Shown piece after piece: positions 1-14,138 of a DNA stretch of 51,441 nt. The notes beneath the pieces are model-generated. The model was not told where the DNA came from and did no database searches. It saw nothing but the letters and a program-made list of their open reading frames with translations. Location of the stretch: positions 1 through 51,441 of the forward strand of contig CAXZAJ010000001.1 of NCBI GenBank assembly GCA_964293355.1, in the 5' to 3' direction. Position 1 is the stretch's first letter; every line of letters starts with the position of its first letter. The position numbers were made by a program, and so were the translations under genes. The DNA is from an uncultured bacterium (lineage in GTDB: Bacteria; Spirochaetota; Spirochaetia; Treponematales; UBA12059).

Positions 1-1
1 G

Positions 2-850
2 GCAGCCATGAATATGGCCATCCGCGGTATCGATTTCAACTTTGGCGGTGAGCCGGCCAATACCTTTACCCGTGATCTGCACCCCGGCCTGAGGGCTGGC
101 TTCGTCATGGCCAATCCGCCCTTCAACCAGGATGAATGGTGGGACGAAAAACTGGCCAATGATCGCCGTTGGACAGGCTTTCCAACGCCCCCCCGGCGCA
201 ATGCCAACTTTGCCTGGATGCTCCACATGCTCAGTCACCTGAATGACTCAGGCTCCATGGGCCTCTTGCTGGCCAACGGCTCCATGAGTTCAGCCACCAA
301 TGGTGAAGACGAGATTCGGCGCAAACTACTGGAACAGGACTTGGTGGAGTGCATGATAGCCCTGCCCGGACAGCTTTTTACCAATACCCAAATTCCTGCC
401 TGTATCTGGTTCCTCACCAAGAACAAAAAGGCACGCACTACATCTGCCGGCACTTACCGTGACCGCCGTGGCGAAGTGCTCTTTATCGATGCCCGCAACC
501 TTGGCCGCATGGTTTCCCGTGTTCAGCGCATTTTTGATGATGCCGACATCCAGAACATCAGCGCCACCGTGGATGCCTGGAAAGCAGGTAACAGCTACGA
601 AGACAAGCCCGGTTTTTGCAAGTCTGCCGCCATGGCCGATCTTGCAAAGAACGACTACGTCCTGACTCCCGGCCGCTATGTCGGCGCGGCTGATGTTGCA
701 GAGGACACCGAGCCCTTCGTCGAGAAAATGGCGCGCCTCACCACCCAGTTGGGCAAGCAGATTGCCGAAGGTGCCCGTCTGGAAGCGGAGATTCGCACGC
801 AACTGGCCAGCATCGGCTTTGAGGTGCCGGTTCCGGACTCGCGTACATGA
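2..850 (+). CDS. hsdM: Type I restriction-modification DNA methyltransferase subunit HsdM, C-terminal part (5' end off the window)
   Basis: The reading frame is open from the left edge. It contains the N6-adenine methyltransferase motif IV NPPFN (ANPPFNQDEWW) and an HsdM-like C-terminal region. hsdS and hsdR lie on the same strand downstream. Confidence 0.9.
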   Translation, partial: AAMNMAIRGIDFNFGGEPANTFTRDLHPGLRAGFVMANPPFNQDEWWDEKLANDRRWTGFPTPPRRNANFAWMLHMLSHLNDSGSMGLLLANGSMSSATNGEDEIRRKLLEQDLVECMIALPGQLFTNTQIPACIWFLTKNKKARTTSAGTYRDRRGEVLFIDARNLGRMVSRVQRIFDDADIQNISATVDAWKAGNSYEDKPGFCKSAAMADLAKNDYVLTPGRYVGAADVAEDTEPFVEKMARLTTQLGKQIAEGARLEAEIRTQLASIGFEVPVPDSRT

Positions 851-1107
851 ATAACGGTAAAGGAATTATAAAAAAAGAAACCCTGGATCCTGGCACCGCC
901 GCAGAGGACGGGAGAAGGAAAATCAGGGCTAACAGTAAGCATAGTCGCATGCCATGGAAAAATATTCAAGATAATGGGGCTAAGTTTTATGTTCATAGGA
1001 CCCGCAACGGGACAGCTTCGGCTACCGCACCAGTGCGGGTTGTTTTTATCACTAATGAACATGAATCCAAATAAGACGACGATTCAATCTCACCAGAGGA
1101 GTTTGAT

Positions 1108-2649
1108 ATGTTTCAGCGTAATCTAAGCCAGATTTGGGAACAGCTTCGGGGTAAAAGCCCTCAGTTTAAACATTTTTTGCAATCAGTGCGCATTGAGAAC
1201 CACAGGGGTATACGTGATTTATCAATCCAGTTTAAATTCCCCGTTACAGTAATCGCTGGGCCTAATGGATGTGGAAAAAGTACTGTTCTGTATTCCTGTG
1301 CTTGCGCTTACCGGGTAGAAGGGGCAGGCTTACGTGACTTTTTTCCATCAGCCATTTTCCCCAACCTTACCATCGATGACAATCTTCAGGATAAACCCAC
1401 TTCCAGCAACATTGATTATACCTATCTTCACGAAAACAAATTTTTCAACATGCGCTGGTCACGAAAAAAGAGCTGGGATAAAAGCTTTTTTGGCCGGAAA
1501 CAAGCCGTACAGCCCGAACGCGCCCTATATCTACGAACGCTCGCCAACCTGACCAGCCCCAGTGAGGTTCGCGGTGTTCTTACCATTGCCAAAAAAGATT
1601 TTACTACGGAGGACGTAACGGTTGATCAAATCGCCTTCGCCCAACGCATCCTTGGCTATAACTATTCGGCAATCAAGGCAATCAAATCCGGCAGCAAAGA
1701 CTTGCTGTTTGCTGCCCGGGACAACGGAGCCATGCAGTATTCGGAATTTCACATGTCTGCAGGCGAAAGGGCCCTTCTTCGTTTATCTCGTGAAATATCC
1801 AGCCTGCAAAATGCGCTGGTGCTGATTGATGAAATTGAGGCTGGTTTGCATCCATATACCCAACAGCAAATAATGCTGGAACTGCAACGTCTGGCTCTGC
1901 GTAACAACCTGCAGATCATAGTTACTACCCATAGCCCGGTAATATTAGAATGTGTACCCATCGAAGGGAAAGTGTTTCTGGAACGTACCGAGGACAACGT
2001 TATCCAAAAATCTGCCTATCGCACTATTATACAAAAAGCTTACTATGGCCAAACCCTTGATCGACTTTCCATTCTTTGCGAAGATGAGGTTGGCGAAGCC
2101 TTTGTTCGGGGTGTACTTGATTGCCTGAACCCAAAGCTGGAACTGATACAGGAAGATATCGAAGTCGGTCGTGATACAGGAAAAAACGAGTTTCCTGGTC
2201 ACATCAGGGCTCTACATAAATTCAGTAAACTTTCGGACTTCCTGTTTGTGCTGGATGGCGATGCCCGTAGCATGGAAACAGAAATCAAGGCTGCAGCGCC
2301 GGGTGAACAAGTCAGGCCAATCTTCCTGCCCGGAGACAGTATCCCCGAAGCATGGTGCTGGAAGATCCTGGAAACTGACACAGATACCTATGCACAAAAA
2401 CTAGGCATAGCCGTCGTAGAACTCAAACAGCGCATGGCCCGTTTGTCGAGTCTGTATCAAGCCGCAGCCGACAAGCAGACTCAAAAAGATAAACAGCAAT
2501 TTTTTGACCTTGCCACCAGCTTGGGGCGTACCACCACCGACCTTGTACGTTTGGTCAGCCGTCAGGAAACCGAACAGGGCACTGGGGATATTGTGCTTTT
2601 GGTGCAAGACCTTGAAAACCAGATCCGCGACTGGCTGGCCAGAAAATAA
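1108..2649 (+). CDS. ABC/OLD-like ATPase with C-terminal Toprim/DUF4435-like region (RloA-RloB / OLD-family-like fusion), 513 aa
   Basis: ATPase motifs: Walker A GPNGCGKST, signature-like SAGERAL, Walker B VLIDEIEAGLHP, H-loop TTHSP. The C-terminal ~170 aa shows the acidic pattern LCEDEVGE ... FVLDGDAR (E...DxD), as in Toprim-type nucleases. An AGAGGAG RBS lies upstream of the ATG. Confidence 0.75.
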   Translation: MFQRNLSQIWEQLRGKSPQFKHFLQSVRIENHRGIRDLSIQFKFPVTVIAGPNGCGKSTVLYSCACAYRVEGAGLRDFFPSAIFPNLTIDDNLQDKPTSSNIDYTYLHENKFFNMRWSRKKSWDKSFFGRKQAVQPERALYLRTLANLTSPSEVRGVLTIAKKDFTTEDVTVDQIAFAQRILGYNYSAIKAIKSGSKDLLFAARDNGAMQYSEFHMSAGERALLRLSREISSLQNALVLIDEIEAGLHPYTQQQIMLELQRLALRNNLQIIVTTHSPVILECVPIEGKVFLERTEDNVIQKSAYRTIIQKAYYGQTLDRLSILCEDEVGEAFVRGVLDCLNPKLELIQEDIEVGRDTGKNEFPGHIRALHKFSKLSDFLFVLDGDARSMETEIKAAAPGEQVRPIFLPGDSIPEAWCWKILETDTDTYAQKLGIAVVELKQRMARLSSLYQAAADKQTQKDKQQFFDLATSLGRTTTDLVRLVSRQETEQGTGDIVLLVQDLENQIRDWLARK

Positions 2650-2653
2650 TCCT

Positions 2654-2911
2654 ATGACCCCACCATCAGTCGACCAAGCCCTTACCGTCCAAGCCCTCAT
2701 CGACCAACTCAAGCATTACGATCCAACTCTGCCCATAGTGGTTCAGAGTTACGAAGACGGTTACGACCCGCTCACGCACTTGCGCGTTCTTACAATCGAG
2801 CCCACAACACCGCACCCCGCCTGGTACAACGGCATCTATCAGGAAAAACCTCAGGCCAGCCAATCCGCGCTCTTGCTCTACTCAATCCTGAGCCGTGAGG
2901 AAAAGCCATGA
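2654..2911 (+). CDS. small hypothetical protein (85 aa), no recognisable family
   Basis: The ATG lies 5 nt after the ATPase stop. Its stop overlaps the hsdS start (ATGA at 2908-2911). The longer ORF-track version from 2504 overlaps the ATPase gene and is unlikely. No obvious RBS. Confidence 0.4.
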   Translation: MTPPSVDQALTVQALIDQLKHYDPTLPIVVQSYEDGYDPLTHLRVLTIEPTTPHPAWYNGIYQEKPQASQSALLLYSILSREEKP

Positions 2912-4284
2912 TACAAAAAGACAAAAAGGGAGGAGTCTCCCCCCTTGCTCCCCCGGTCCTGCGAATCTCGGACCGGGCCTCGGTTCCTGCGTCGACTGCG
3001 GGGTCTTCCGCTACCCCCCTAGGTGTGTTGCCGGCGGGATGGAGATTTTTACCGATTGATCTAGTCACAAACAATCATGACTCAAAACGCCGTCCGGTTA
3101 AAGGATCAGAAAGAAAATCAGGGCCTTATCCCTATTATGGTGCATCTGGAATTGTAGATTGGGTTGATGACTATATTTTTGATGGCGAATATCTACTTGT
3201 TGCTGAAGATGGTGAAAACTTAAAGACCACACAAACACCAATTGCTTTTCTTTCCATGGGTAAGTCATGGGTAAATAATCATGCACATATTATCACAGGA
3301 AATGAAAAGGCACTTACTAAGTATTTACTGTACGCATTACAGAATATGGATATCAAGCCATATTTAACAGGGGCTGTAATGCCCAAGTTAACTCAGGCAA
3401 ATTTAAACAGTATTCAAATATTATTGCCACCACTTCTACAACAACAAAAAATCGCCGCCATCCTCTCAGCCCTCGACGACAAGATCGCCCTCAATCGTGC
3501 CACCAACCAGACGCTCGAACAGATTGCCCAGGCTCTCTTCAAAAGCTGGTTTGTCGACTTTGACCCCGTCCACGCCAAAGCCCGGGGCGAACAACCCGTC
3601 GGTATGGATGCCGCCACCGCCGCCCTCTTCCCCGACAGTTTTGAAGAATCGGAGCTGGGGATGATTCCGAAGGGGTGGGAAGTGAAGAAGTTGTCGGAAT
3701 TGATACAAATCACTGGTGGAGGTACACCCAAACGGTCAGAAGAATCATATTGGAATGGCAATATCCCCTGGTACTCCGTAAAGGACGCACCTAATGAAAG
3801 CGATGTATTTGTCATCGACACTGACGAACATATCTCTGAAATAGGACTTAAGGAGTCTTCAACTCGACTGCTCTCGGTTGGTACAACTATTATTTCTGCA
3901 CGTGGGACTGTTGGAAAGTTGGCTTTAGTTGCCACCCCCATGTGTATGAACCAATCATGTTATGGAATACTTGGAAATAATGGAAGCAGCAACTGTTATA
4001 ATTATTTTAATCTTAAATTCGCACTTTCTATGTTACAAGAAAAGGTTCATGGTGCTGTATTTGATACAATAACAACAGCAACGTTTGAAACGTGCTTTGT
4101 TGTCTTTCCTGGAATCAAGTATACCGCTCAATACGAGTCGGCCATTCAATCGGCAATGAAGCAGATTGAGACCAATGTACGACAAAATACTGTTCTAAAC
4201 AATATCCGCGACTCCCTGCTTCCCAAGCTCCTGTCCGGGGAAATATCGGTGGCTGATGTTGCCTATCAGGGTTCAAAAAAATGA
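2908..4284 (+). CDS. hsdS: Type I restriction-modification specificity subunit HsdS (two target-recognition domains)
   Basis: Two TRD-like halves (LPAGWRF..., IPKGWEV...). Central conserved spacer LLPPLLQQQKIAAILSALDDKIALN...FKSWFVDFDP and C-terminal LLPKLLSGEISV. The true start may be GTG 3025 or TTG 3028 rather than ATG 2908 (see finding). Confidence 0.9.
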   Translation: MIQKDKKGGVSPLAPPVLRISDRASVPASTAGSSATPLGVLPAGWRFLPIDLVTNNHDSKRRPVKGSERKSGPYPYYGASGIVDWVDDYIFDGEYLLVAEDGENLKTTQTPIAFLSMGKSWVNNHAHIITGNEKALTKYLLYALQNMDIKPYLTGAVMPKLTQANLNSIQILLPPLLQQQKIAAILSALDDKIALNRATNQTLEQIAQALFKSWFVDFDPVHAKARGEQPVGMDAATAALFPDSFEESELGMIPKGWEVKKLSELIQITGGGTPKRSEESYWNGNIPWYSVKDAPNESDVFVIDTDEHISEIGLKESSTRLLSVGTTIISARGTVGKLALVATPMCMNQSCYGILGNNGSSNCYNYFNLKFALSMLQEKVHGAVFDTITTATFETCFVVFPGIKYTAQYESAIQSAMKQIETNVRQNTVLNNIRDSLLPKLLSGEISVADVAYQGSKK

Positions 4285-7200
4285 ATCTCAATTTTTGGGA
4301 AGCCTATCAGCTGGATTTCCGGAGTGCCGATGGTATTCCTTCTATTTTATGCGAAGGGCCAGAGCAATTCTCAGAAATAATTAATTTGCTGGGCAAAATC
4401 CCTGAATCAAAATTTGTTTTTCGCGGACAAAGAAGGGCGGACTGGAAACTTACACCGGGTCTGGCCCGTTTCTCACCTGAGCGAATTGTCAAGGAAGATC
4501 ATGCAAAGGAGCAAATTGACCTATTTCGCAAGTCGGTTCGGGGATTTAAAATGGATCGCTCTCTACTAGAGGGCAATGATAGTCGTGCAGAGAAGGAACT
4601 TTGGTCAACTGGTCAACATTGTGGCCTGCACACACCATTATTGGACTGGACCAGTGCCCCATTCATTGCACTATTTTTTGCTTTTGAGCAAAAAGACTGT
4701 GCTCACAAACAAAAAAATCCATTCCGCTGTGTTTTCGCTCTAAATAAACTCAAAGTAGAATCGCTTTGGGTAGCAAACGCCGACGATTCAATTCGTTTTA
4801 TTGAACCAATTGAAGATGAGCAGGGCCGCCTAGTTGCTCAGGAGGGGCTGTTTACTATATCGCCCTACGGAAAAAACTTTGAAGAAACCCTTCTAAATGG
4901 GTTGGCATCCAAACTTGTTCAAGGCGAAGTCATTTCTGATCCGAACGTTGTAGCGCCATATCTGCTAAGGATTTTGATTGTAAATCGAAACCAGCCAGAG
5001 ATTATTAAATTTCTACGGGATATGAGTATTAATTATGCCAAAATGTACCCCGGCTTAATTGGAGCTTCTCAGGACTGCAACTCGATATTTGAAACAAAAT
5101 ATGTAAACCAGGTAACTGCCCTTGATTCGATAGAGGAAACTCTCCAGACCATCAATCCACCAGCTCTCGCTCGCTTCCCTCAAGAACTAATACCAAGCCT
5201 TACACAAACTATTCAACTATACTGGAACCATCATGCATCCGCGAGTAGCCTTGCTGTGGCCAATTTAATTGGTGCTTGGGACGAAAACAACGCGGTCGAT
5301 ATCGCCGCCATTACTGAGTTATCCGGAAAAACTTACGATACCTTGGTGTATGAATATCGCGAGATTTTGGAGCATCCCGAATCGCCCCTTAGCTTTGTGT
5401 CTGGACATTGGCAGGTCAAGGATAGAATAGATTTGTTGGAATCTTTAAAATCCCGCCTGTTTGAAAAAGACCTTACTATTCTGATGAAAATTGCCCTCAA
5501 GGTATTTACGGAGATTGACCCAGCGTTTGAACTTGAGCCCGAGCAACGGTTTGCGGCCAGTATTTATGGAAAAAAAACCTTATATTCAAATATCCTAAGA
5601 AAAGGATTGGCCGAAGGTCTGGCTATGCTTGGAAGCACGAAATTGGATTTCCCTCGTTGCTCACAATCAAGTATCCATTCAGCGGTTAAAACTTCAATTT
5701 GCGAGATTCTAGACTCTACCGATTGGCAATTGTGGGGTAGTCTCAACAGTCTTTTGCCTACTCTGGCCGAGGCAGCCCCGGAAGTTTTTCTTAACCAAAT
5801 TGAACATGCCTTGCATGTTTCTCCCTGTCCCTTTGACCAGCTTTTTACCCAAGAGGGAATTGGCGCTTTAGGCCATAACTACCTAACCGGGTTGTGGTGG
5901 GCATTGGAAAATTTAGCATGGGACCAGACCTACCTTGTCCACGCAACACAAGTCTTGGGTGAACTGGCTGCGCATGACCCCGGCGGGAATTGGGTAAACC
6001 GTCCTATTAATTCCTTAACCACAATTTTCTTACCCTGGCGCTATCAAACCCTGGCTTCTATCGATAAACGCACGACCGCTGTCCAAACTCTCTGTGTAAA
6101 TTGGCCCAATATCGGTTGGAAACTATTGTTGAACTTGCTACCAAATCATTTCCAAACTAGTTCTGGTACTTCCAAGCCAGTTTGGCTCCTACGTATCCCA
6201 GAAGACCATGGTAAAACAATCAACAATACCGAATACTGGCAACAGATAGAAAACTATTCCAAGATAGCAATTGCCCAAGCCAAATCTGATAGTAAGAAGT
6301 TGGCAGAGCTTATTGACCATAGCACTGACCTGCCACCAGAAGTATTTCGTCAATTCGTCAAACGTCTGTCTCTCGATGACCTTAAAGAATTGCCAGACCA
6401 AGAGCGTTTGTTCATTTGGGACCATCTCCTAAAACTGACGGTTAAGCATCGGAAGTTTCCTGAAGCGAAGTGGGTTATGCCGGTTGAACGTTTAGAGGCA
6501 CTGGAGACGATTTCTGCTGGTTTGGCCCCAGTTGATCCATTTATTCTTCACCAACCCTTATTCACCGATCGAGATTTTGATTTGTACGAAGATACAGACG
6601 ACTATGCCGCGCAAGCTACTAAACTCGACCAGCGTCGCCAGGCTGCTATTCAACAGATTTTTAACACCAAGGGATTTGGAAGCGTAGTTGATTTTGCCAA
6701 CCAAGTAATTTCGCCCAGCCAAGTAGGACACGCCCTTGGAGGAATCAGCGATGAATCGATTGATCTCCAAATCTTGCCCTCATTTCTGGATGATGGTAAT
6801 GCCGTGCACATCGCCTTAGCCACAGGCTTTATTTGGAAACGACTCAACATCTATGGTTGGGAGTGGTGCGATACCTTTGCGGAGTTGAAATGGAGCACAA
6901 AACAGATTACGAAGTTCTTTTGTTTGTTGCCATTCAAAACCGAAGCCTGGTCTAGGGCCGAAAAATGGCTGGGGGCTGATCAGAGTGAATACTGGACCCA
7001 AACAAATGCTAATCCCTATCAGCACGATGGCATACCAGAGTATGCAATTGAAAAGATGCTTGAAAACGGCAGGCCTTTTGCGGCCATCAATTGCCTTGCG
7101 GTGGCCCACCAATTTAAACACACAATTTCGACTAATCAAGTCAAAAGAGCCCTGTTAGATGCATGCCAGTCCCAAGAACCTGTTGAGGCCCTGGATCGAC

Positions 7201-7916
7201 ACAACATTACTGAAACCATCAAGTACCTTCAGGACAGCCCAGATGTTACGGACGAAGAACGCATCGCTATTGAATGGGCTTTCCTGGCCATGCTCGATGA
7301 GTACAGTGGTACGCGACCCAGAACACTGGAGCGACAATTAGCCAATGATCCTAATCTCTTTTGTGAGCTTATTCGCTTGATATTTCGCTCCAAGAATTTC
7401 CAGCAGGAACAAGAGCTTCCCGATGAACAAAAGAAAAACACGGCCATAAACGCCTATCGTTTGTTGGACAACTGGAAAACGATTCCAGGAATGCAAGAAT
7501 CCGGAGTTTTTGACGCTCAGTTTTTCGAAGAGTGGTTCAACCAAATACGCAAATCTACGGCTGAGTCTGGCCATCTTGAAATTGCTTTGAGCAAGGTAGG
7601 CGTTGTTCTGGTGCATGCTCCCGCCGATCCAGAAGGATTATGGATTCACAAGGCAGTCGCCAAAGCTTTGAATGGAGTAGAGGCCGATAGTTTGAGGCAA
7701 GGATACCAAATAGGGATTATGAACAGTCGTGGTGTCCACTGGGTTGATCCATCAGGTAAGCCAGAACTTGATTTGGCAGAAGAATATGATCAAAAAGAAA
7801 AAGCAATACTTTCGCAAGGCTACCATAAGTTCGCCCAAACACTCCGGGGTATTGCGGAGAATTATAGGGAAGACGCTGACAGAATACGGCGCCAATACGA
7901 AGGTGACGACGAATAA
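4281..7916 (+). CDS. FRG-domain protein with ~950-aa C-terminal alpha-helical region of unknown function (1211 aa)
   Basis: The N-terminal ~260 aa carry the FRG-domain hallmarks FVFRGQRRADW, GQHCGLHTPLLDWTSAPFIALFFA and GRLVAQEGLFT. The rest has no motif I recognise. The start overlaps the hsdS stop (ATGA). Confidence 0.85.
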   Translation: MNLNFWEAYQLDFRSADGIPSILCEGPEQFSEIINLLGKIPESKFVFRGQRRADWKLTPGLARFSPERIVKEDHAKEQIDLFRKSVRGFKMDRSLLEGNDSRAEKELWSTGQHCGLHTPLLDWTSAPFIALFFAFEQKDCAHKQKNPFRCVFALNKLKVESLWVANADDSIRFIEPIEDEQGRLVAQEGLFTISPYGKNFEETLLNGLASKLVQGEVISDPNVVAPYLLRILIVNRNQPEIIKFLRDMSINYAKMYPGLIGASQDCNSIFETKYVNQVTALDSIEETLQTINPPALARFPQELIPSLTQTIQLYWNHHASASSLAVANLIGAWDENNAVDIAAITELSGKTYDTLVYEYREILEHPESPLSFVSGHWQVKDRIDLLESLKSRLFEKDLTILMKIALKVFTEIDPAFELEPEQRFAASIYGKKTLYSNILRKGLAEGLAMLGSTKLDFPRCSQSSIHSAVKTSICEILDSTDWQLWGSLNSLLPTLAEAAPEVFLNQIEHALHVSPCPFDQLFTQEGIGALGHNYLTGLWWALENLAWDQTYLVHATQVLGELAAHDPGGNWVNRPINSLTTIFLPWRYQTLASIDKRTTAVQTLCVNWPNIGWKLLLNLLPNHFQTSSGTSKPVWLLRIPEDHGKTINNTEYWQQIENYSKIAIAQAKSDSKKLAELIDHSTDLPPEVFRQFVKRLSLDDLKELPDQERLFIWDHLLKLTVKHRKFPEAKWVMPVERLEALETISAGLAPVDPFILHQPLFTDRDFDLYEDTDDYAAQATKLDQRRQAAIQQIFNTKGFGSVVDFANQVISPSQVGHALGGISDESIDLQILPSFLDDGNAVHIALATGFIWKRLNIYGWEWCDTFAELKWSTKQITKFFCLLPFKTEAWSRAEKWLGADQSEYWTQTNANPYQHDGIPEYAIEKMLENGRPFAAINCLAVAHQFKHTISTNQVKRALLDACQSQEPVEALDRHNITETIKYLQDSPDVTDEERIAIEWAFLAMLDEYSGTRPRTLERQLANDPNLFCELIRLIFRSKNFQQEQELPDEQKKNTAINAYRLLDNWKTIPGMQESGVFDAQFFEEWFNQIRKSTAESGHLEIALSKVGVVLVHAPADPEGLWIHKAVAKALNGVEADSLRQGYQIGIMNSRGVHWVDPSGKPELDLAEEYDQKEKAILSQGYHKFAQTLRGIAENYREDADRIRRQYEGDDE

Positions 7917-7951
7917 CCCTATCATCTGCGTATTCTTGACTGGAGCGAAAA

Positions 7952-8440
7952 ATGACTGACCAGGAACCTGAACCAATGAATCCCGACATCTCTCCCACCC
8001 ATGGCCAATTCCTTGTGTACCAGACTGAGAACGGACACATCAAGCTGGATGTCCGCTTTGAAGGCGAAACGGTTTGGCTTACCCAACCCATGCTGGCAGA
8101 ATTGTTCCAGACGACACAGCAGAATATCAGCCAACACATTCTTAATATCTATGAAGAAGAAGAACTTGCCCCGGAGGCAACTCACAAGGATTTCTTGTTG
8201 GTTCGAACTGAGGGCAATCGAAAGGTCAAGCGCCTCCTGGATTACTACAACCTCGATATGATTATTTCCGTGGGCTACCGTATCAAGAGCCATGTAGCCA
8301 CCCGCTTCCGCATCTGGGCTACTGCATGTTTACGAGAAATAAAATTATTCGATGATCAACATGCACAAAACACGTTAGAATTGGCTCATATTCCGTTTGT
8401 TTCGTATATATTGCACGATTTTGAGGTGGTATCATGCTGA
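7952..8440 (+). CDS. rhuM: RhuM-family protein, N-terminal fragment only (truncated, 162 aa)
   Basis: The N-terminal ~120 aa match the RhuM pattern (FLVYQTENGHIKLDVRFEGETVWLTQPMLAELFQTTQQNISQHI ... YNLDMIISVGYRIKSHVATRFRIWAT). From about nt 8320 the sequence becomes an unrelated AT-rich tail. Full-length family members are about twice this size. Confidence 0.65.
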   Translation: MTDQEPEPMNPDISPTHGQFLVYQTENGHIKLDVRFEGETVWLTQPMLAELFQTTQQNISQHILNIYEEEELAPEATHKDFLLVRTEGNRKVKRLLDYYNLDMIISVGYRIKSHVATRFRIWATACLREIKLFDDQHAQNTLELAHIPFVSYILHDFEVVSC

Positions 8441-9720
8441 ACTACTTGAAGCTGAAAAACATTGGACCAGCTCCGGAATTTTACATTCCGCAGTTTGGTT
8501 CAAGGTTGAATTTGATCACCGGTGACAACGGTTTAGGTAAAAGCTTTCTGCTTGACAGTGCCTGGTGGGCTTTGACCAGAAAATGGCCAGCAGAAATCAA
8601 CCCGAGCCTAGTCGGCGGAAAAAAAGCGATACCCTATGGCAAAGGCACCGCATGTATCGAGTTTTCATTCACCGCAAAGACCGGGTCTGAAGTATATACA
8701 AGTTCTTTTGACAGGGAATCACAAGCCTGGACTGGCCGTTCCGGCCGGCCAGCTAATCCGGGGCTCATTCTGTATGCCATGGCTGATGGTAGTTTTGCCT
8801 TGTGGGATCCGGCTCGCAACTATTGGAAAAAGAAAGGTAGTATCGATGTACAGGACAGACCACCTGCCTACGTTTTTACTCCGGACCAAGTTTGGAACGG
8901 CTTAGGCGGTGAAAAAGGTACAATGGTCTGCAATGGTTTGATTCAGGATTGGGCCGGCTGGCAAAAAGAGAATGGCCGCGCCTTCAAGACTTTATGTGCG
9001 GTCCTTACAACGCTCTCTGCCAATGAAAGTGAACGCTTGATTCCTGGTGAACTGACCAGAATCAGCTTGGATGATGTTCGGGATATGCCAACCTTGAGCT
9101 TGTCGTATGGTCAATCAGTTCCGGTTGTACATGCATCTGCTGGTATGCGCAGGATCATCGCTCTGGCCTACTTTATGGTTTGGGCTTGGGAGGAACACCA
9201 AAAAGCAGTCCAAATTCTGGGGACAGCTCCGATTGAGCAGATGGTCTTTCTCATTGATGAAATTGAGTCTCATCTCCACCCCAGTTGGCAAAAACGCGTC
9301 ATACCATCGCTGGTACGTGTGGTCCGCGATCTTTCAGCTACGATGAACTCCCAATTATTGCTCGTAACCCACTCCCCGTTGATCATGGCATCGGTGGAAC
9401 CGTTGTTTGACCCTACACAAGATGCATGGTTTGATATTGATCTGATTGACTCTCACGTAACCTTACAAACAAAATCATTCACCAAGCACGGAGATATCTT
9501 GAATTGGCTGACTAGTGAAGCCTTTGATCAGTTCAGTGGAAGGGCTCCGGAATATGAACAACTCGTGGATGAAGCCAGTAAACTACTGGATGCGAATCAA
9601 AATTTAGATATCTCGGCAATCAGAGAAATTCATGGACGACTCGCCAAGGCATTAAGTCCGTTGGATGTCTTCATTATCAGATGGCGTGCAGCGTGTGAAA
9701 AGAAAGGAATATTTCTTTGA
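8434..9720 (+). CDS. AAA_21/ABC-type ATPase, Septu PtuA-like (428 aa)
   Basis: Walker A GDNGLGKS, Walker B/D-loop FLIDEIESHLHP, H-loop LVTHSP. It is paired by a 4-nt overlap with a TIGR02646-like HNH protein. Confidence 0.7.
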   Translation: MLNYLKLKNIGPAPEFYIPQFGSRLNLITGDNGLGKSFLLDSAWWALTRKWPAEINPSLVGGKKAIPYGKGTACIEFSFTAKTGSEVYTSSFDRESQAWTGRSGRPANPGLILYAMADGSFALWDPARNYWKKKGSIDVQDRPPAYVFTPDQVWNGLGGEKGTMVCNGLIQDWAGWQKENGRAFKTLCAVLTTLSANESERLIPGELTRISLDDVRDMPTLSLSYGQSVPVVHASAGMRRIIALAYFMVWAWEEHQKAVQILGTAPIEQMVFLIDEIESHLHPSWQKRVIPSLVRVVRDLSATMNSQLLLVTHSPLIMASVEPLFDPTQDAWFDIDLIDSHVTLQTKSFTKHGDILNWLTSEAFDQFSGRAPEYEQLVDEASKLLDANQNLDISAIREIHGRLAKALSPLDVFIIRWRAACEKKGIFL

Positions 9721-10319
9721 TACCAGTGCAGCCGCAATCAGAGCCACCGGACTTTAACCAAAAAGTGCGTATTCCTGGTCAATCCTGGCTAAGAAACAAG
9801 GGAATTGCCCCTGGTGCACCTCCACTCAAAGCTGGAACTCTACCCGCTTACTGGTCAAAATCGCAAAAGAATCTTTGGGATGCGTACCATGGCGTTTGCT
9901 CCTACCTTTCAATGTATTTTTACTGGGAAACCGGCGCCAGCTTCACTGATCATTTCGTTCCAAAATCAAAAAATGCCTGGAAAGCTTATGAGTGGGATAA
10001 TTATCGACTTTCAGCTCTTGGTCCGAATCGTCGAAAAGGAATAAAAACTAATATCCTCGACCCGTTCGCGCTGCAGCCGGGTACATTCACAATCAATTTT
10101 GTTAGTGGTACTGTTTCTATAGCGCAGCAAGTCTCGGTCAGCATTCGTACGTTAGCGCAAGATACGATCGATGAACTTGGTTTGAATGAACCTGAAACGT
10201 GCCGTACTCGTACTGAATGTTTTGATGGATTTCTTTCGCATAACCTAAGTTCAGATTACCTTTCGAGAAAATTTCCCTTTGTGCATGCGGAGCTGGTACG
10301 ACAAGGTTACGTATCATGA
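9717..10319 (+). CDS. TIGR02646/PtuB-like HNH-family protein (200 aa; TTG start at 9717 or GTG at 9726)
   Basis: The core GVCSYLS...FTDHFVPKS...YEWDNYRLSALGPNRRKG fits the His-Me finger layout (DHF His, downstream Asn, RKG) of the small nuclease partner of PtuA-type ATPases. It overlaps the ATPase stop, and its own stop overlaps the hsdR start. Confidence 0.55.
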   Translation: MIPVQPQSEPPDFNQKVRIPGQSWLRNKGIAPGAPPLKAGTLPAYWSKSQKNLWDAYHGVCSYLSMYFYWETGASFTDHFVPKSKNAWKAYEWDNYRLSALGPNRRKGIKTNILDPFALQPGTFTINFVSGTVSIAQQVSVSIRTLAQDTIDELGLNEPETCRTRTECFDGFLSHNLSSDYLSRKFPFVHAELVRQGYVS

Positions 10320-13300
10320 CAGAAGACCAGCTTGAAAAAATTACTATAGATTGGTTCCGCGCCCAAGGTTATGACTACGCCTACGGCCCCGACATAGGCC
10401 ATGACGGCGACAGTCCGGAACGGCCCGATTATGCCAGCGTCATTCTACCCAAGCGCCTGGCAAGTTCCCTGTCATCGCTCAACCCTGCAATTCCTGCATC
10501 CGTCATTGATGAAGTCGTTTCTCTCCTGCAGAAGCCAAAACATCTGACGTTGCTTGCCAATAACCGTCAGTTTCATGAATGGCTTCTGGATGGCGTTCCT
10601 GTTGAAGTTGAAAAGAATGGGCGCAAAATCGGAGACCGGGTCAAGCTGATCGATTTTGCCGCCCCCGATAAGAATCACTTTTTGGTAGTGAATCAATTTA
10701 CCGTTTTTGGTACCAAACAGCCCCGCAGGCCTGATATTGTGGTCTTCATCAATGGCATGCCCATTGCCGTCATCGAACTCAAAAACCCTGCTGACGAACA
10801 AGCAGACATCTGGTCAGCTTTTCATCAACTGCAAACCTATAAACAAGAGATATCCGACCTCTTCATCTTCAACGAAACCTTGGTCATTTCTGACGGCATC
10901 AATGCCAGGCTTGGCTCCCTTACAGCCGATCAGGAACGCTTCATGCGCTGGCGCACACTGAAGAACGAAAATGAAAAACCCTTATTGCAGTTCGAGCTGG
11001 AAACTTTAATAAAAGGATTCTTTGACAGAGAACTGCTCCTGGACTACCTACGCTACTTCATACTCTTTGAAAACATGGGGGATACCCCCGTCAAGAAGAT
11101 TGCTGGTTACCACCAGTTCCATGCGGTACGTGAAGCCGTCAGGGCAACGATTATCGCCTCCCACCATGATCCTGATGATGTGGCTGAACCGCCAAACGAC
11201 TGGGGTGAGAAAGTTACTCCCGGATGTAAAAAGGGAGGAGTGGTTTGGCACACCCAGGGATCCGGTAAGAGCATCTCAATGGCCTGCTTCGCCGGAAAGC
11301 TCCTGCAACAGCCGGAAATGAAAAACCCGACCCTGCTGATCGTTACCGATCGCAATGATCTGGATGGCCAGTTGTTCGAGACGTTTTGCATGGCGCACAT
11401 GCTCTTGAAGCAAACGCCTGTACAGGTTGAAAACGTTGATGAACTTCGCGATTTGCTGTCTGCCCGGCCCTCGGGAGGGATCTTCTTTACAACTATCCAG
11501 AAATTCCAGATCAAGGATGGTGAAGACCGGTTCCCCGTCTTGAATGACAGGCACAACCTGGTGGTTATTGCCGATGAAGCCCATCGCAGCCACTACGGCG
11601 ACAAGGCAACCCTTAACAAGAAGACCGGTGCGTATACCTACGGGTTCTCCAAGAACATGAGGGATGCCCTGCCCAATGCCACCTTCGTGGGCTTTACCGG
11701 TACACCAATCGCCCAGGAAGACAAGGACACGGTCGCGGTTTTTGGCGAGTACGTCAGTATCTATGATATTCAGGACGCCGTGCTCGACGGTGCCACTGTT
11801 CCCATCTACTACGAAAGCCGTTTAGCCAAGCTTGACCTGAATGAAGCGGAGATTCCGGTTATCGATGATGATATCGATGAGATCATTGAAGACGACGAGG
11901 ACACTCAGACAAGAGAGCAGACCAAGAGTAAATGGGCCGCGTTGGAGAAGCTCGTAGGTGCCCAACCTCGACTTGAGCAAGTAGCCAAAGACTTGATCGA
12001 TCATTTTGAAGCGCGCACTTCAGCTGTCGAAGGCAAGGCTATGATCGTATGCATGAGCCGTGAAATCTGCGCCAACCTCTATAGCGCGTTGGTTGTTCTT
12101 CGCCCGGAATGGCATTCTGCAGATCCTTTACAGGGAACAATTAAAGTCATAATGACTGGGTCTGCGTCAGACAGGGAAACGCTACAACCACATATTTACA
12201 ATGGACGCACCAAAAAGCAATTAGAAAAGCGCTTCAAGAATCCCGGTGATTCGCTTAAACTGGTCATCGTCAGGGATATGTGGCTCACTGGCTTTGATGC
12301 GCCATCCTGCCACACCATGTACATCGACAAACCCATGAAGGGTCACAATCTCATGCAGGCCATTGCCCGGGTAAACCGCGTATTCAAGGGCAAAGAAGGC
12401 GGCTTGGTAGTCGATTACATTGGTATTGCCAATGAGCTCCGCCATGCCCTCGTGACCTATACCCAGGCAAAGGGTAAAGGCTCCCCAACCCTCGACACCA
12501 ATGATGCCTATAACAAATTGCTTGAATTCCTGGATGTTGTCCGAGGCTTGTTCCACGGCTTCGACTATAGAAACTACAAAAAATCACCCATTCCTCTACT
12601 GGTTCCGGCCGCGAATCACATTCTTGGCTTGGATGATGGCAAAAAAAGGTTTTACGATGTGGTACTCGCTTTAAGCAAAGCCCACTCACTATGTTCCACT
12701 CTGGACGCTGTTAAAGCATACCAGGAAGAAATAGCATTTTTTCAGGCAGTCAAGTCAGTAATCGCCAAGGCTTCCGGCTCGGATCTAAAACTGACTGAAG
12801 ACCAGAAAAACAGCGCCCTCAAACAGATTCTTGATAATGCAGTAGTTGCCCAAGGAATTGACAATATCTTTGCCCTTGCCGGTCTTGAACGACCGGATAT
12901 TTCAATTCTCTCTGACGAGTTCTTGGCTGAAGTAGCGAATATGCCTGCACGCAATCTAGCCGTAGAGTTACTGCAAAAGCTGTTGCATGACGAAATAAAG
13001 TCTAAAACCCGCAACAATATAGTGCAGGAAAAAAAATATAGTGATCGCTTGCTTGATACCCTCAAAAAGTATCGCAATCGTTCTATAGAAAGCTCTCAAG
13101 TAATAGAAGCATTAATCGCCCTTGCAAAGGAATTCAGGGACACCGTTAACCGCGGAATTGATTTAGGTTTAAATTCCGATGAAGTTGCCTTTTATGATGC
13201 CCTTGCAGAAAACGAAAGTGCAGTCCGGGAATTGGGTGATGAAATCCTTAAAAAAATCGCACAGGAAATCACTGAAAAGCTTAGAAAAAGTACCAGCGTT

Positions 13301-13459
13301 GATTGGCAGAAACGTGAGAGCATCCGTGCAAAATTACGAAACCTTGTACGCATAACGCTTCGCAAGTACAAATACCCTCCGGATAAAACCGAAGAGGCTA
13401 TAGAACTTGTACTCAAACAAGCTGAAGTTCTATCAAATGAGTGGACTAAAGATCTATGA
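10316..13459 (+). CDS. hsdR: Type I restriction enzyme R subunit HsdR (1047 aa)
   Basis: Typical HsdR N-terminus (EDQLEKITIDWFRAQGY), helicase motif I HTQGSGKS, motif II VIADEAHRSH, and a long C-terminal helical domain. Confidence 0.93.
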   Translation: MTEDQLEKITIDWFRAQGYDYAYGPDIGHDGDSPERPDYASVILPKRLASSLSSLNPAIPASVIDEVVSLLQKPKHLTLLANNRQFHEWLLDGVPVEVEKNGRKIGDRVKLIDFAAPDKNHFLVVNQFTVFGTKQPRRPDIVVFINGMPIAVIELKNPADEQADIWSAFHQLQTYKQEISDLFIFNETLVISDGINARLGSLTADQERFMRWRTLKNENEKPLLQFELETLIKGFFDRELLLDYLRYFILFENMGDTPVKKIAGYHQFHAVREAVRATIIASHHDPDDVAEPPNDWGEKVTPGCKKGGVVWHTQGSGKSISMACFAGKLLQQPEMKNPTLLIVTDRNDLDGQLFETFCMAHMLLKQTPVQVENVDELRDLLSARPSGGIFFTTIQKFQIKDGEDRFPVLNDRHNLVVIADEAHRSHYGDKATLNKKTGAYTYGFSKNMRDALPNATFVGFTGTPIAQEDKDTVAVFGEYVSIYDIQDAVLDGATVPIYYESRLAKLDLNEAEIPVIDDDIDEIIEDDEDTQTREQTKSKWAALEKLVGAQPRLEQVAKDLIDHFEARTSAVEGKAMIVCMSREICANLYSALVVLRPEWHSADPLQGTIKVIMTGSASDRETLQPHIYNGRTKKQLEKRFKNPGDSLKLVIVRDMWLTGFDAPSCHTMYIDKPMKGHNLMQAIARVNRVFKGKEGGLVVDYIGIANELRHALVTYTQAKGKGSPTLDTNDAYNKLLEFLDVVRGLFHGFDYRNYKKSPIPLLVPAANHILGLDDGKKRFYDVVLALSKAHSLCSTLDAVKAYQEEIAFFQAVKSVIAKASGSDLKLTEDQKNSALKQILDNAVVAQGIDNIFALAGLERPDISILSDEFLAEVANMPARNLAVELLQKLLHDEIKSKTRNNIVQEKKYSDRLLDTLKKYRNRSIESSQVIEALIALAKEFRDTVNRGIDLGLNSDEVAFYDALAENESAVRELGDEILKKIAQEITEKLRKSTSVDWQKRESIRAKLRNLVRITLRKYKYPPDKTEEAIELVLKQAEVLSNEWTKDL

Positions 13460-13478
13460 ATACCTGCCAACGGCATAA

Positions 13479-14138
13479 ATGGAACCCATGACGCCCCAAA
13501 ACCCCATTCGCGCCCTCCTCGTCACCCCCACATCCCTCACCCTCGTCACCTACCTTCCCGGCAAGCCCGACGCCCCTGCTGACGACTCCGGCACCGTGCA
13601 ACTCCTCACCTGGTCAGAAGCCCCGGACGGCCGCGCCCTGCCGCGCTGCACTGAAACGATCTCCAGGAAGGCCATTGCCGAGCGAAACCCAGCCTTCAAC
13701 GAAGCTCTGTCCCCGTACCGGTTCGGGCTCCAGCAGTACGACCCGTTCCAGTCGTTGGCGGTCTCGCTTGACCGGGCCGCGGAACAGGGCGCGGGTCTGT
13801 CGCTGGCACTCTGGGCCGCGCTGGAGGCGGACCTGTTCCGCTTTGCCTTTGACCAAAGCTTTACCGCTGCGCTCGACGAGGCCCGCGGTACTGACGAGTG
13901 GCTCCGTTTTGCCCGGCTCAACGGCTTGTACCGGGCCTGCATTATGGCGCTGGCACCCCTGGGCATCGTGCCGCCGGCCTGGAACGCCTGGCTCCGTGAT
14001 GACGGCAAGGCCCGTTTTCCTCCGCGCGGCATGAGCAACGTGCTGGAACGGGCCCTGACGCGGCGCATCGGCACAATCTCAGGCGCGATCACAGGCTTTT
14101 TCTCGGGTTCCATCAAAGGCCAGTTCTCGGCTCCGTAA
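13479..14138 (+). CDS. hypothetical protein (219 aa), high-GC
   Basis: Strong G/C preference at third codon positions in this frame. The competing 350-aa antisense ORF also overlaps the next gene and looks like a shadow ORF. No family recognised. Confidence 0.5.
   Translation: MEPMTPQNPIRALLVTPTSLTLVTYLPGKPDAPADDSGTVQLLTWSEAPDGRALPRCTETISRKAIAERNPAFNEALSPYRFGLQQYDPFQSLAVSLDRAAEQGAGLSLALWAALEADLFRFAFDQSFTAALDEARGTDEWLRFARLNGLYRACIMALAPLGIVPPAWNAWLRDDGKARFPPRGMSNVLERALTRRIGTISGAITGFFSGSIKGQFSAP

Follow-up and report, generated by a model that had tools for sequence, protein, structure and literature searches.

What does a 513-aa ATPase gene do between the hsdM and hsdS genes of a type I R-M system, and does it depend on the small gene that follows it? 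The window analysed here is a stretch of 51,441 nucleotides from an uncultured member of the Spirochaetota, and a preliminary description of it had read the ATPase and its 85-aa neighbour as a new, compact two-gene variant of OLD/PARIS-type abortive infection that possibly monitors the R-M system. The evidence presented below points elsewhere: the 513-aa gene is very probably an anti-phage defence that works by itself, as a single gene of the HEC-04/IbfA type in the OLD superfamily.

Gene layout and flanks

The hsdM part, the ATPase gene, orf85 and hsdS all lie on the forward strand. The window opens in the 3′ part of hsdM (positions 2–850), which is truncated by the contig end and borders the cargo slot on its upstream side; its product is 88–91% identical in amino-acid sequence to HsdM of three other loci (L001, L003 and L004), where Pfam identifies N6_Mtase. 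A spacer made up of relics (847–1107) leads to the ATPase gene (1108–2649), which has a GGAG Shine-Dalgarno motif 9 nt before its ATG, followed by orf85 (2654–2911, 85 aa) and by hsdS (2908–4284) as the downstream flank. The geometry first described for the small gene holds for the ORF itself and for the ATGA at 2908–2911 that its stop shares with the hsdS start, but 4 nt (TCCT) rather than 5 separate the ATPase stop codon (TAA, 2647–2649) from the orf85 ATG at 2654. HsdS matches Methylase_S (2.2e-41) and Specificity_I (2.3e-120, match starting at residue 43), and has a GC-rich N-terminal extension of ~42 aa that is common to the window and L004, the first 44 aa being 64% identical between the two. 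Further neighbours are an FRG-domain protein, a RhuM fragment, a PtuA-like gene and, after it, a 200-aa ORF without a Pfam match, and finally hsdR. The island around the 513-aa gene is dense in defence genes and has a GC content of 44–51%, against 57–65% in the remaining contig.

Co-transcription of the 513-aa gene with the hsd genes is predicted and probable. A sigma-70 promoter scan of the spacer found none ahead of the ATPase gene, and an Rfam scan of positions 1–14000 matched zero RNA families. The spacer does contain a conserved segment (995–1047) with a terminator-like hairpin (1025–1038) and then a T-run, and this hairpin upstream of the gene, together with the lack of a promoter match, counts against assured expression.

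An ATPase-Toprim protein of a described family

The 513-aa protein consists of an N-terminal ABC ATPase (residues ~20–300), a Toprim domain (~318–410) and a C-terminal helical bundle (413–512). The full ABC-type motif set that had been read from the ORF is present, with Walker A GPNGCGKST at residues 51–59 (positions 1258–1284; K57 at 1276–1278) and, at positions 1756–1938, the signature SAGERAL (217–223), the Walker B/D-loop LIDEIEAGLHP (239–249) and the H-loop TTHSP (273–277). The Toprim core (2059–2337) is built of strand-helix repeats (residues 320–324/327–344, 351–355/359–371 and 378–382/384–395). The E...DxD pattern reported for the C-terminal region falls in the motifs CEDEVGE (324–330) and LDGDAR (382–387), in which E325 (2080–2082), D383 (2254–2256) and D385 (2260–2262) are the candidate catalytic residues. 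In an alignment of 42 homologues with 51–75% identity, K57 and these acidic residues are invariant. The same is true of G51, N53 and G56 in Walker A, of S217, G219, E220, R221, L239, I240, E244, G246, H248, P249, H275 and S276 in the other ATPase motifs, and of C324 and D326 (on either side of E325), G354, D356, T357 and L382 in the Toprim domain. Since key residues of the motifs are invariant in homologues, the motifs represent conserved features and not chance.

Pfam matches of the protein are AAA_15, AAA_21 and SMC_N, and NCBIfam gave nothing beyond sub-threshold ATPase matches. The C-terminal 223 aa returned zero Pfam matches at E ≤ 10, OLD-like_TOPRIM and DUF4435 included, and the suggested kinship of this region with DUF4435, RloB or PARIS proteins is therefore not supported by Pfam. 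In the AF2 model (pLDDT 86) the region has a beta-alpha Toprim topology, and its acidic residues lie where strands end. Foldseek places the model closest to the full-length OLD nuclease of Thermus, 6P74 (E 2.4e-13, whole-chain TM 0.37), and there are further matches to the ABC-type ATPases PtuA, OLD and AriA. When PDB sequences were searched with the profile of the family, ATPase cores alone were aligned (PtuA, OLD, AriA and Rad50) and no Toprim.

The best of 158 PADLOC matches was HEC-04 (PDLC04149; E 1.4e-50, 170 bits), with residues 15–481 aligned to profile positions 18–463 of 494, a coverage of 91% for the protein and 90% for the profile. Searched by itself, the C-terminal 214 aa matches the Toprim part of the same profile (positions 305–463), weakly (E 6.9e-5). 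HEC-04, or Hma-embedded candidate 04, is a one-gene ABC-ATPase-TOPRIM defence shown by phage assays, and protection is lost in the K62A and E319A/D375A/D377A mutants (Payne, Hughes, Fineran, Jackson; bioRxiv 10.1101/2024.01.29.577857). These positions match K57, E325, D383 and D385 of the window protein, and both proteins are single chains of ~500 aa in which an ABC ATPase precedes a C-terminal TOPRIM. HEC-04 is likewise embedded within a multi-gene methylation-based defence system, whereas the window copy sits between hsdM and hsdS of a type I R-M system and not in an Hma system, and its host is a high-GC uncultured bacterium. The match, as measured against the HEC-04 profile, is a distant one (170 bits over 467 residues), and the C-terminal helical tail of the window protein (~482–513) falls outside it.

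IbfA, from IncI1/R64-type plasmids, is a 1557-bp gene for an ATPase plus TOPRIM protein and a HEC-04 homologue according to PADLOC; as a single gene it interferes with phage growth in an abortive-type manner, with a proposed mechanism of distorted early and late phage transcription that is specific to P22-like phages (PMC12111858). In architecture and size the window protein corresponds to HEC-04 and IbfA, which have been described before, and the claim of a new compact variant is not supported. As a stand-in for IbfA we compared a 518-aa 'AAA family ATPase' encoded next to a ProQ/FinO gene on the E. coli IncF plasmid NZ_CP096181.1, which we take to be IbfA from its 1557-bp length and ProQ neighbour alone. 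The domain order is identical to that of the 513-aa protein, and hhalign of the family profile against it gave a probability of 99.3% (E 1.5e-20, residues 16–423). E325 and D383/D385 line up with its 'veDD' and 'lDGD' and, besides these E and DGD Toprim motifs, an 'LPG..PE' segment aligns. On the HEC-04 model this plasmid protein scores 141 bits, against 170 for the window protein. It differs in being plasmid-borne, from Enterobacteriaceae and not R-M-embedded, with ~27% identity. Given this identity and the distant HEC-04 profile match, activity and phage range may differ, and the mechanism proposed for P22-like phages may not carry over to the window protein. By sequence comparison, the 513-aa protein is a new member of the already described HEC-04/IbfA single-gene family; its membership, motif conservation and fold are established.

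The initial reading of the gene as a defence-type fusion of an OLD-type ATPase with a Toprim domain agrees with both the HEC-04 match and the 6P74 fold match, and it is important to consider how close the ties to other such systems are. Class 1 OLD proteins (P2 Old and Thermus scotoductus OLD, 6P74) are, like the window protein, stand-alone ABC ATPase plus Toprim chains, of 500–590 aa. With hhalign, P2 Old was aligned at a probability of 84.9% (E 6.4e-6), with E325 on the glutamate of its 'vEG'. The PADLOC Old model is absent among the best 25 of the 158 matches for the window protein, and it matches two homologues, locally (E ~1e-15). The tie to class 1 OLD is thus at the level of the superfamily, not of the family. 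An ABC ATPase is combined with a Toprim nuclease in PARIS (AriA/AriB), in Gabija (GajA/GajB) and in the effector of retron I-B (Eco8) as well, and segments of the window ATPase match the AriA, GajA and ATPase-Toprim_I-B profiles, the last with E 7.6e-31 and the first two local to the ATPase core. In contrast to PARIS, the window protein has no DUF4435/AriB match, and the AriA/AriAB matches comprise residues 231–279 and 24–62. In contrast to Gabija, whose GajA profiles match residues ~233–301, no GajB/UvrD helicase ORF adjoins the ATPase gene, as had been described from the start. In contrast to retron I-B, there is no reverse transcriptase ORF among the neighbours and no Rfam RNA in the 14000 positions scanned.

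Cargo exchange between hsdM and hsdS

A word-index search gave >2000 hits for the 513-aa protein. Homologues that are 51–56% identical occur in Bacteroidota, Bacillota, Beggiatoa and Magnetococcales, while only two of 401 genomes from the same phylum have a match; this patchy distribution, combined with such identity across unrelated phyla, indicates horizontal spread. An alignment search of metagenome contigs recovered two further full-length loci and no more, and a profile-free search of genome contigs with the single protein gave one irrelevant 70-residue match. For the comparison of genomic context we used 10 loci other than the window, each with an ATPase homologue. Seven of these homologues (L002, L009–L013 and L020; 51–65% identity) have no hsd or other R-M genes in the examined flanks and no orf85 relative, and no neighbour is conserved across the 10 loci. 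This comparative context indicates that the 513-aa gene has no obligatory partner. Two neighbouring genes were considered and rejected: the gene upstream of the L002 homologue, a candidate hsdM, is SpoIID, and a 75-aa ORF downstream of the L011 homologue is unrelated to orf85 by the orf85-family profile.

Many ATPase homologues are solitary chromosomal genes amid metabolic or housekeeping genes. Such surroundings would fit an ATP-dependent nuclease with a housekeeping or repair-type role, carried in the island by chance, and host-beneficial roles have been raised for distant chromosomal homologues of IbfA (PMC12111858). The patchy spread across unrelated phyla and within the same phylum argues against a role of this kind, as do the location of the gene in a low-GC island rich in defence genes and the fact that the nearest tested relatives, HEC-04 and IbfA, are defence proteins. 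We consider a non-defence function highly improbable.

DNA similarity between the window and L001 covers precisely positions 1108–2648, the ATPase ORF alone (blastn), and establishes the boundaries of the cassette. The L001 ATPase is 75% identical and has a HEPN/MNT-type pair after it in place of orf85, while L003 shares 92% DNA identity with the window over 1005–2921. The gene order in L004 is hsdM, an Abi-like gene, orf87 and hsdS, with the same ATGA overlap as in the window; the gene filling this slot matches Abi_2 with E 2.3e-5, slightly below the Pfam cutoff. Part of the window spacer (847–934) corresponds to the first ~28 codons of that Abi_2-like gene (blastn), and the conserved 995–1047 segment sits directly upstream of the orf85 homologue in L004. 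The recorded contents of the slot are therefore a HEC-04-like gene with orf85 (window and L003), a HEC-04-like gene with the HEPN/MNT pair (L001) and an Abi_2-like gene with orf85 (L004). The 513-aa gene is a one-gene cassette, and the slot that received it, in a type I R-M island gained by horizontal transfer, exchanges its cargo.

That three related operons (window, L001 and L003) carry the gene in this slot could also suggest a guard of the R-M system, PrrC- or PARIS-like, that stays silent as long as the Hsd complex is intact and fires when a phage anti-restriction protein, Ocr- or ArdA-like, inactivates the complex or mimics its target. According to the text of a review, Ocr triggers both PARIS and Gabija, which share the pairing of an ABC ATPase with a Toprim. 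However, the hsdM genes of the three embedded cases have 82–83% DNA identity and form one lineage, so that together they represent roughly a single event, with an exchange of the adjacent gene in addition. Since seven of the 10 external homologues have no hsd gene in the examined flanks, and HEC-04 is protective in an E. coli strain without R-M systems, we regard a guard function as unlikely.

The small gene requires separate consideration. The orf85 family has 45 representatives at E ≤ 1e-3, with proteins of 70–87 aa and the invariant residues Y33, E34, G36 and G60, and its members match PHROG 7217 and 5861, both function-unannotated. A pN/pS of 0.17–0.29 indicates purifying selection and thus a real gene. 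Pfam gave nothing for orf85 at E ≤ 10 and chance matches only for 43 family members. The AF2 model (pLDDT 84.5) had zero Foldseek matches in the PDB.

The two-gene proposal casts orf85 as a regulator, antitoxin or trigger sensor that works with the ATPase-Toprim protein. A gap of 4 nt separates the two genes, which occur together in the window and L003, the small gene is under purifying selection, and the omission of IPTG for HEC-04, whose strain showed apparent toxicity (bioRxiv 10.1101/2024.01.29.577857), makes an antidote plausible in principle. Yet co-occurrence with the ATPase clade, searched with the family profile, extends to one of the 10 external loci, the near-identical operon L003, and orf85 relatives are found without the ATPase in five further loci (L004 and L014–L017), mostly within phage-like gene arrays. 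In L004 the orf85 homologue keeps its place before hsdS while the Abi-like gene fills the slot, the L001 ATPase has a HEPN/MNT-type pair next to it, and both HEC-04 and IbfA act as single genes. The lack of co-occurrence is established, and we find an orf85 partnership distinctly improbable. Judged by its sequence relatives, orf85 is a gene separate from the ATPase that belongs with hsdS and comes from a small, mostly phage-borne family. In three operons (window, L003 and L004) it immediately precedes hsdS and shares the ATGA with it, an overlap that probably couples its translation to that of hsdS.

The tie of orf85 to hsdS is the sole remaining item of some interest: a fold without a solved analogue, fixed ahead of hsdS as the neighbouring cargo changes. 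It could be a domesticated copy of a widespread phage small protein that acts on the R-M system, in HsdS translation or assembly control or as a decoy for a phage factor. This possibility and that of an hsd-embedded HEC-04-like clade firing upon anti-restriction are, even when taken jointly, improbable.

Proposed mode of action and implications

For the 513-aa gene as an autonomous defence, the N-terminal ABC ATPase is likely to be the infection sensor or switch, and the C-terminal Toprim, with its putative metal site E325...D383-x-D385, the nuclease effector. By analogy to HEC-04 and IbfA, infection would probably change the state of the ATPase, which would license nucleic-acid cleavage by the Toprim domain and stop phage production. 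We propose this switch-effector scheme because HEC-04 needs both motifs and is toxic when over-expressed, and because IbfA interference is of the abortive type. We infer defence activity in this host, together with its trigger, its substrate and an abortive outcome, from these relatives. The gene itself entered the slot between hsdM and hsdS in the acquired island as a cassette of one gene.

The locus shows clearly how, in nature, single-gene cassettes replace one another between the hsdM and hsdS genes of a type I R-M system. The pattern of slot contents backs the published "guilt-by-embedding" picture and opens no new one. What the 513-aa gene adds to the HEC-04/IbfA family is a divergent clade that is environmentally widespread.

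A single-chain ABC ATPase-Toprim protein

The ATPase gene (1108–2649, +) has its own GGAG ribosome-binding site and encodes a 513-aa protein in which Pfam detects the ATPase alone (AAA_15, AAA_21 and SMC_N). The preliminary description read it as an ABC ATPase with a Toprim-like tail, a domain call that is correct, and all of the motifs it quoted are present (residues 51–59, 217–223, 239–249, 273–277, 324–330 and 382–387). A word-index search gave >2000 matches, the best 120 of which are all 508–538 aa long, share 51–56% identity and come from several phyla; K57, E325, D383 and D385 are invariant in a 42-sequence alignment. In the AF2 model (pLDDT 86), three strand-helix units (320–324/327–344, 351–355/359–371 and 378–382/384–395), with the acidic residues at the strand ends, come after the ABC ATPase, and a six-helix bundle comes after the third unit. 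The PDB structure that the model matches best is the full-length OLD nuclease of Thermus scotoductus (6P74, E 2.4e-13), the remaining matches being ABC ATPase cores of PtuA.

The top PADLOC match is HEC-04, a single-gene ABC ATPase-TOPRIM phage defence (E 1.4e-50; residues 15–481 against profile positions 18–463 of 494), followed by the retron I-B ATPase-Toprim model (7.6e-31). Taken by themselves, the C-terminal 214 aa retain a match to the HEC-04 profile in its Toprim part (E 6.9e-5), whereas their match to the retron I-B model is weak (E 0.042). Several coliphages plaque less on E. coli deltaRM with HEC-04, this defence is abolished by K62A and by E319A/D375A/D377A, and apparent toxicity led to IPTG being left out for the HEC-04 strain (Payne et al., bioRxiv 10.1101/2024.01.29.577857). 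The spacing from E to DxD is close in the two proteins, 58 and 60 residues in the window protein versus 56 and 58 in HEC-04. The gene encodes one polypeptide in which both the ABC ATPase and the Toprim metal site are intact, and their conserved residues are essential in a homologue.

IbfA, an ATPase-TOPRIM protein that IncI1 plasmids encode in a gene of 1557 bp, is assigned to HEC-04 by PADLOC and interferes with P22-like and other phages (PMC12111858). An "AAA family ATPase" of 518 aa is encoded beside a ProQ/FinO gene on an IncF plasmid of E. coli; we regard this protein as IbfA because of its 1557-bp length and its ProQ neighbor rather than from an alignment to R64 or pUA1135 IbfA. The family profile aligns with this IbfA-like protein at an hhalign probability of 99.3% (E 1.5e-20), pairing LCEDE with veDD and VLDGDA with ilDGDk and including the LPG..PE segment, and with P2 Old at 84.9% (E 6.4e-6), where E325 falls on the Toprim "vEG" glutamate. 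The 513-aa protein belongs to the HEC-04/IbfA family, inside the OLD superfamily. Published work already covers this architecture, its size and its habit of sitting inside methylation-based defence operons. Among other candidates, PARIS was ruled out because DUF4435 was not detected in the protein, Gabija because a helicase gene is absent, and a retron effector because there is neither an RT nor an Rfam RNA family match.

The restriction-modification island

The window is a complete contig of a metagenome-assembled genome (499 contigs, 88% completeness), and its first 13.5 kb form a gene array on one strand. hsdM (2–850, +), truncated by the contig end, is followed by a 257-nt spacer, the ATPase gene, orf85 (2654–2911, +) and hsdS (2908–4284, +), then by genes for a 1211-aa FRG-domain protein and a RhuM fragment, and finally by hsdR (10316–13459, +). 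Just upstream of hsdR, at 8434–10319, a PtuA-like ATPase gene (PADLOC PtuA, E 4e-173) and a 200-aa ORF with no Pfam match would add to the operon a second module based on an ABC ATPase. Since GC content steps from 44–51% in the island (1–13500) to 57–65% across the rest of the contig (13500–51441), the composition is consistent with horizontal gain of the entire island.

The ATPase gene is embedded between hsd genes in the window and in two external loci, L001 and L003, which raises the possibility that the protein guards the restriction-modification system. This role is possible but unsupported, because the three embedded cases have a single hsdM lineage in common, no hsd gene lies near seven further homologues (L002, L009–L013 and L020; L021 was too short to be judged), and HEC-04 works in a strain without restriction-modification systems (bioRxiv 10.1101/2024.01.29.577857). 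The L002 homologue adjoins SpoIID and M16 peptidase genes, and a match was found in only 2 of 401 genomes of the window's own phylum. In the likely mechanism, infection would change the nucleotide or oligomeric state of the ATPase, which may license nucleic-acid cleavage by the Toprim domain and so an abortive-type block. The hsdM-ATPase spacer contains no sigma-70-type promoter; expression is probably by read-through from the hsd promoter, which a terminator-like hairpin at 1025–1038 (+), CCGCACCAGTGCGG, with its T-run may attenuate.

The hsdM–hsdS cargo slot and orf85

The preliminary description suggested that the ATPase and orf85 may be a compact two-gene variant, a reading that is not supported. 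orf85 is a real gene: 45 representatives were found at E <= 1e-3 in a 50%-clustered library, Y33, E34, G36 and G60 are invariant, pN/pS is 0.17–0.29 among three close copies and the AF2 fold is confident (pLDDT 84.5). It begins 4 nt, not 5 nt as earlier stated, after the ATPase gene, and the reported ATGA overlap with hsdS was borne out. When 10 external loci with the ATPase gene were translated in six frames and their ORFs searched with an orf85-family profile, a relative was found only in L003, a near-identical operon with a 96% identical ATPase, and the orf85 relatives of L004 and L014–L017 have no ATPase homologue nearby. Co-occurrence of the small ORF with the ATPase, as judged from these loci, fails in both directions.

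L004, whose hsdM is 88% identical to that of the window over the common region, is decisive for where orf85 belongs. In its slot lies an Abi_2-like gene of 281 aa that carries an RNxxxH motif (Pfam Abi_2 E 2.3e-5, just under cutoff), and its orf85 homologue lies directly before hsdS, with the ATGA overlap and the GC-rich HsdS N-terminal extension both as in the window. Window 408–934, 995–1047 and 2675–3006 align with L004 1–527, 1339–1391 and 1445–1776 at 88%, 94% and 91% DNA identity; therefore window 1048–2674 is an insert, comprising the ATPase ORF with 60 nt upstream and 25 nt downstream. In L001, similarity is limited to the ORF itself (1108–2648; 68% DNA, 75% protein), and an HEPN/MNT-type pair follows, whose MNT domain is joined to HsdS. 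These comparisons show the ATPase gene to be a mobile cassette of one gene and place orf85 on the hsdS side of the slot. At L001 3459–5542, an NTase_sub_bind (HEPN-type) protein precedes an HsdS that bears an NTP_transf_2/Polbeta (MNT-type) nucleotidyltransferase domain at its N-terminus; a specificity subunit is thereby fused to a toxin-antitoxin-like pair.

The HsdS extension (~42 aa, GC-rich, MIQKDKKGGVSPLAPPV...; window 2908–3035, L004 1678–1809, L003 8255–8300) always starts within the orf85 stop (ATGA). It shows 64% amino-acid identity in L004, its first residues are kept in L003 as well, and PADLOC HsdS profiles match only from residue 43 on. In L003, hsdS has shrunk to a 118-aa ORF (8255–8611) in which the extension and the final ~25 codons survive along with a fragment of a different target-recognition domain, and this restriction-modification system is probably without a functional specificity subunit.

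The orf85 family (70–87 aa; window and L014–L017) has the core motif MTVxELIxxL...VVxGYEdGYD...WYxG and no Pfam family, and it is common in phage-like contigs. Its members match PHROG 7217 (25 of 43) and PHROG 5861 (14 of 43), both function-unknown families; the fold has no PDB analogue, but BFVD contains many uncharacterised phage proteins that resemble it. Relatives sit in phage-like arrays of small ORFs, accompanied by genes for thymidylate synthase, metallophosphatases, an SNF2 helicase and a PD-(D/E)XK protein.

The 75-aa ORF behind hsdM (847–1074) is a chimeric relic: the first ~28 codons (847–934) are the 5′ end of the Abi_2-like gene occupying the L004 slot, and the end (995–1047) is the conserved hairpin segment, found in L004 a short way upstream of the orf85 homologue. 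This segment shows 94% identity in L004, and the hairpin is present in L003 too; the hairpin may act as an attenuator or mark the slot border as a recombination landmark. A phage-type small protein tied to hsdS, orf85 is a residual curiosity, and the relic records a past cargo replacement.
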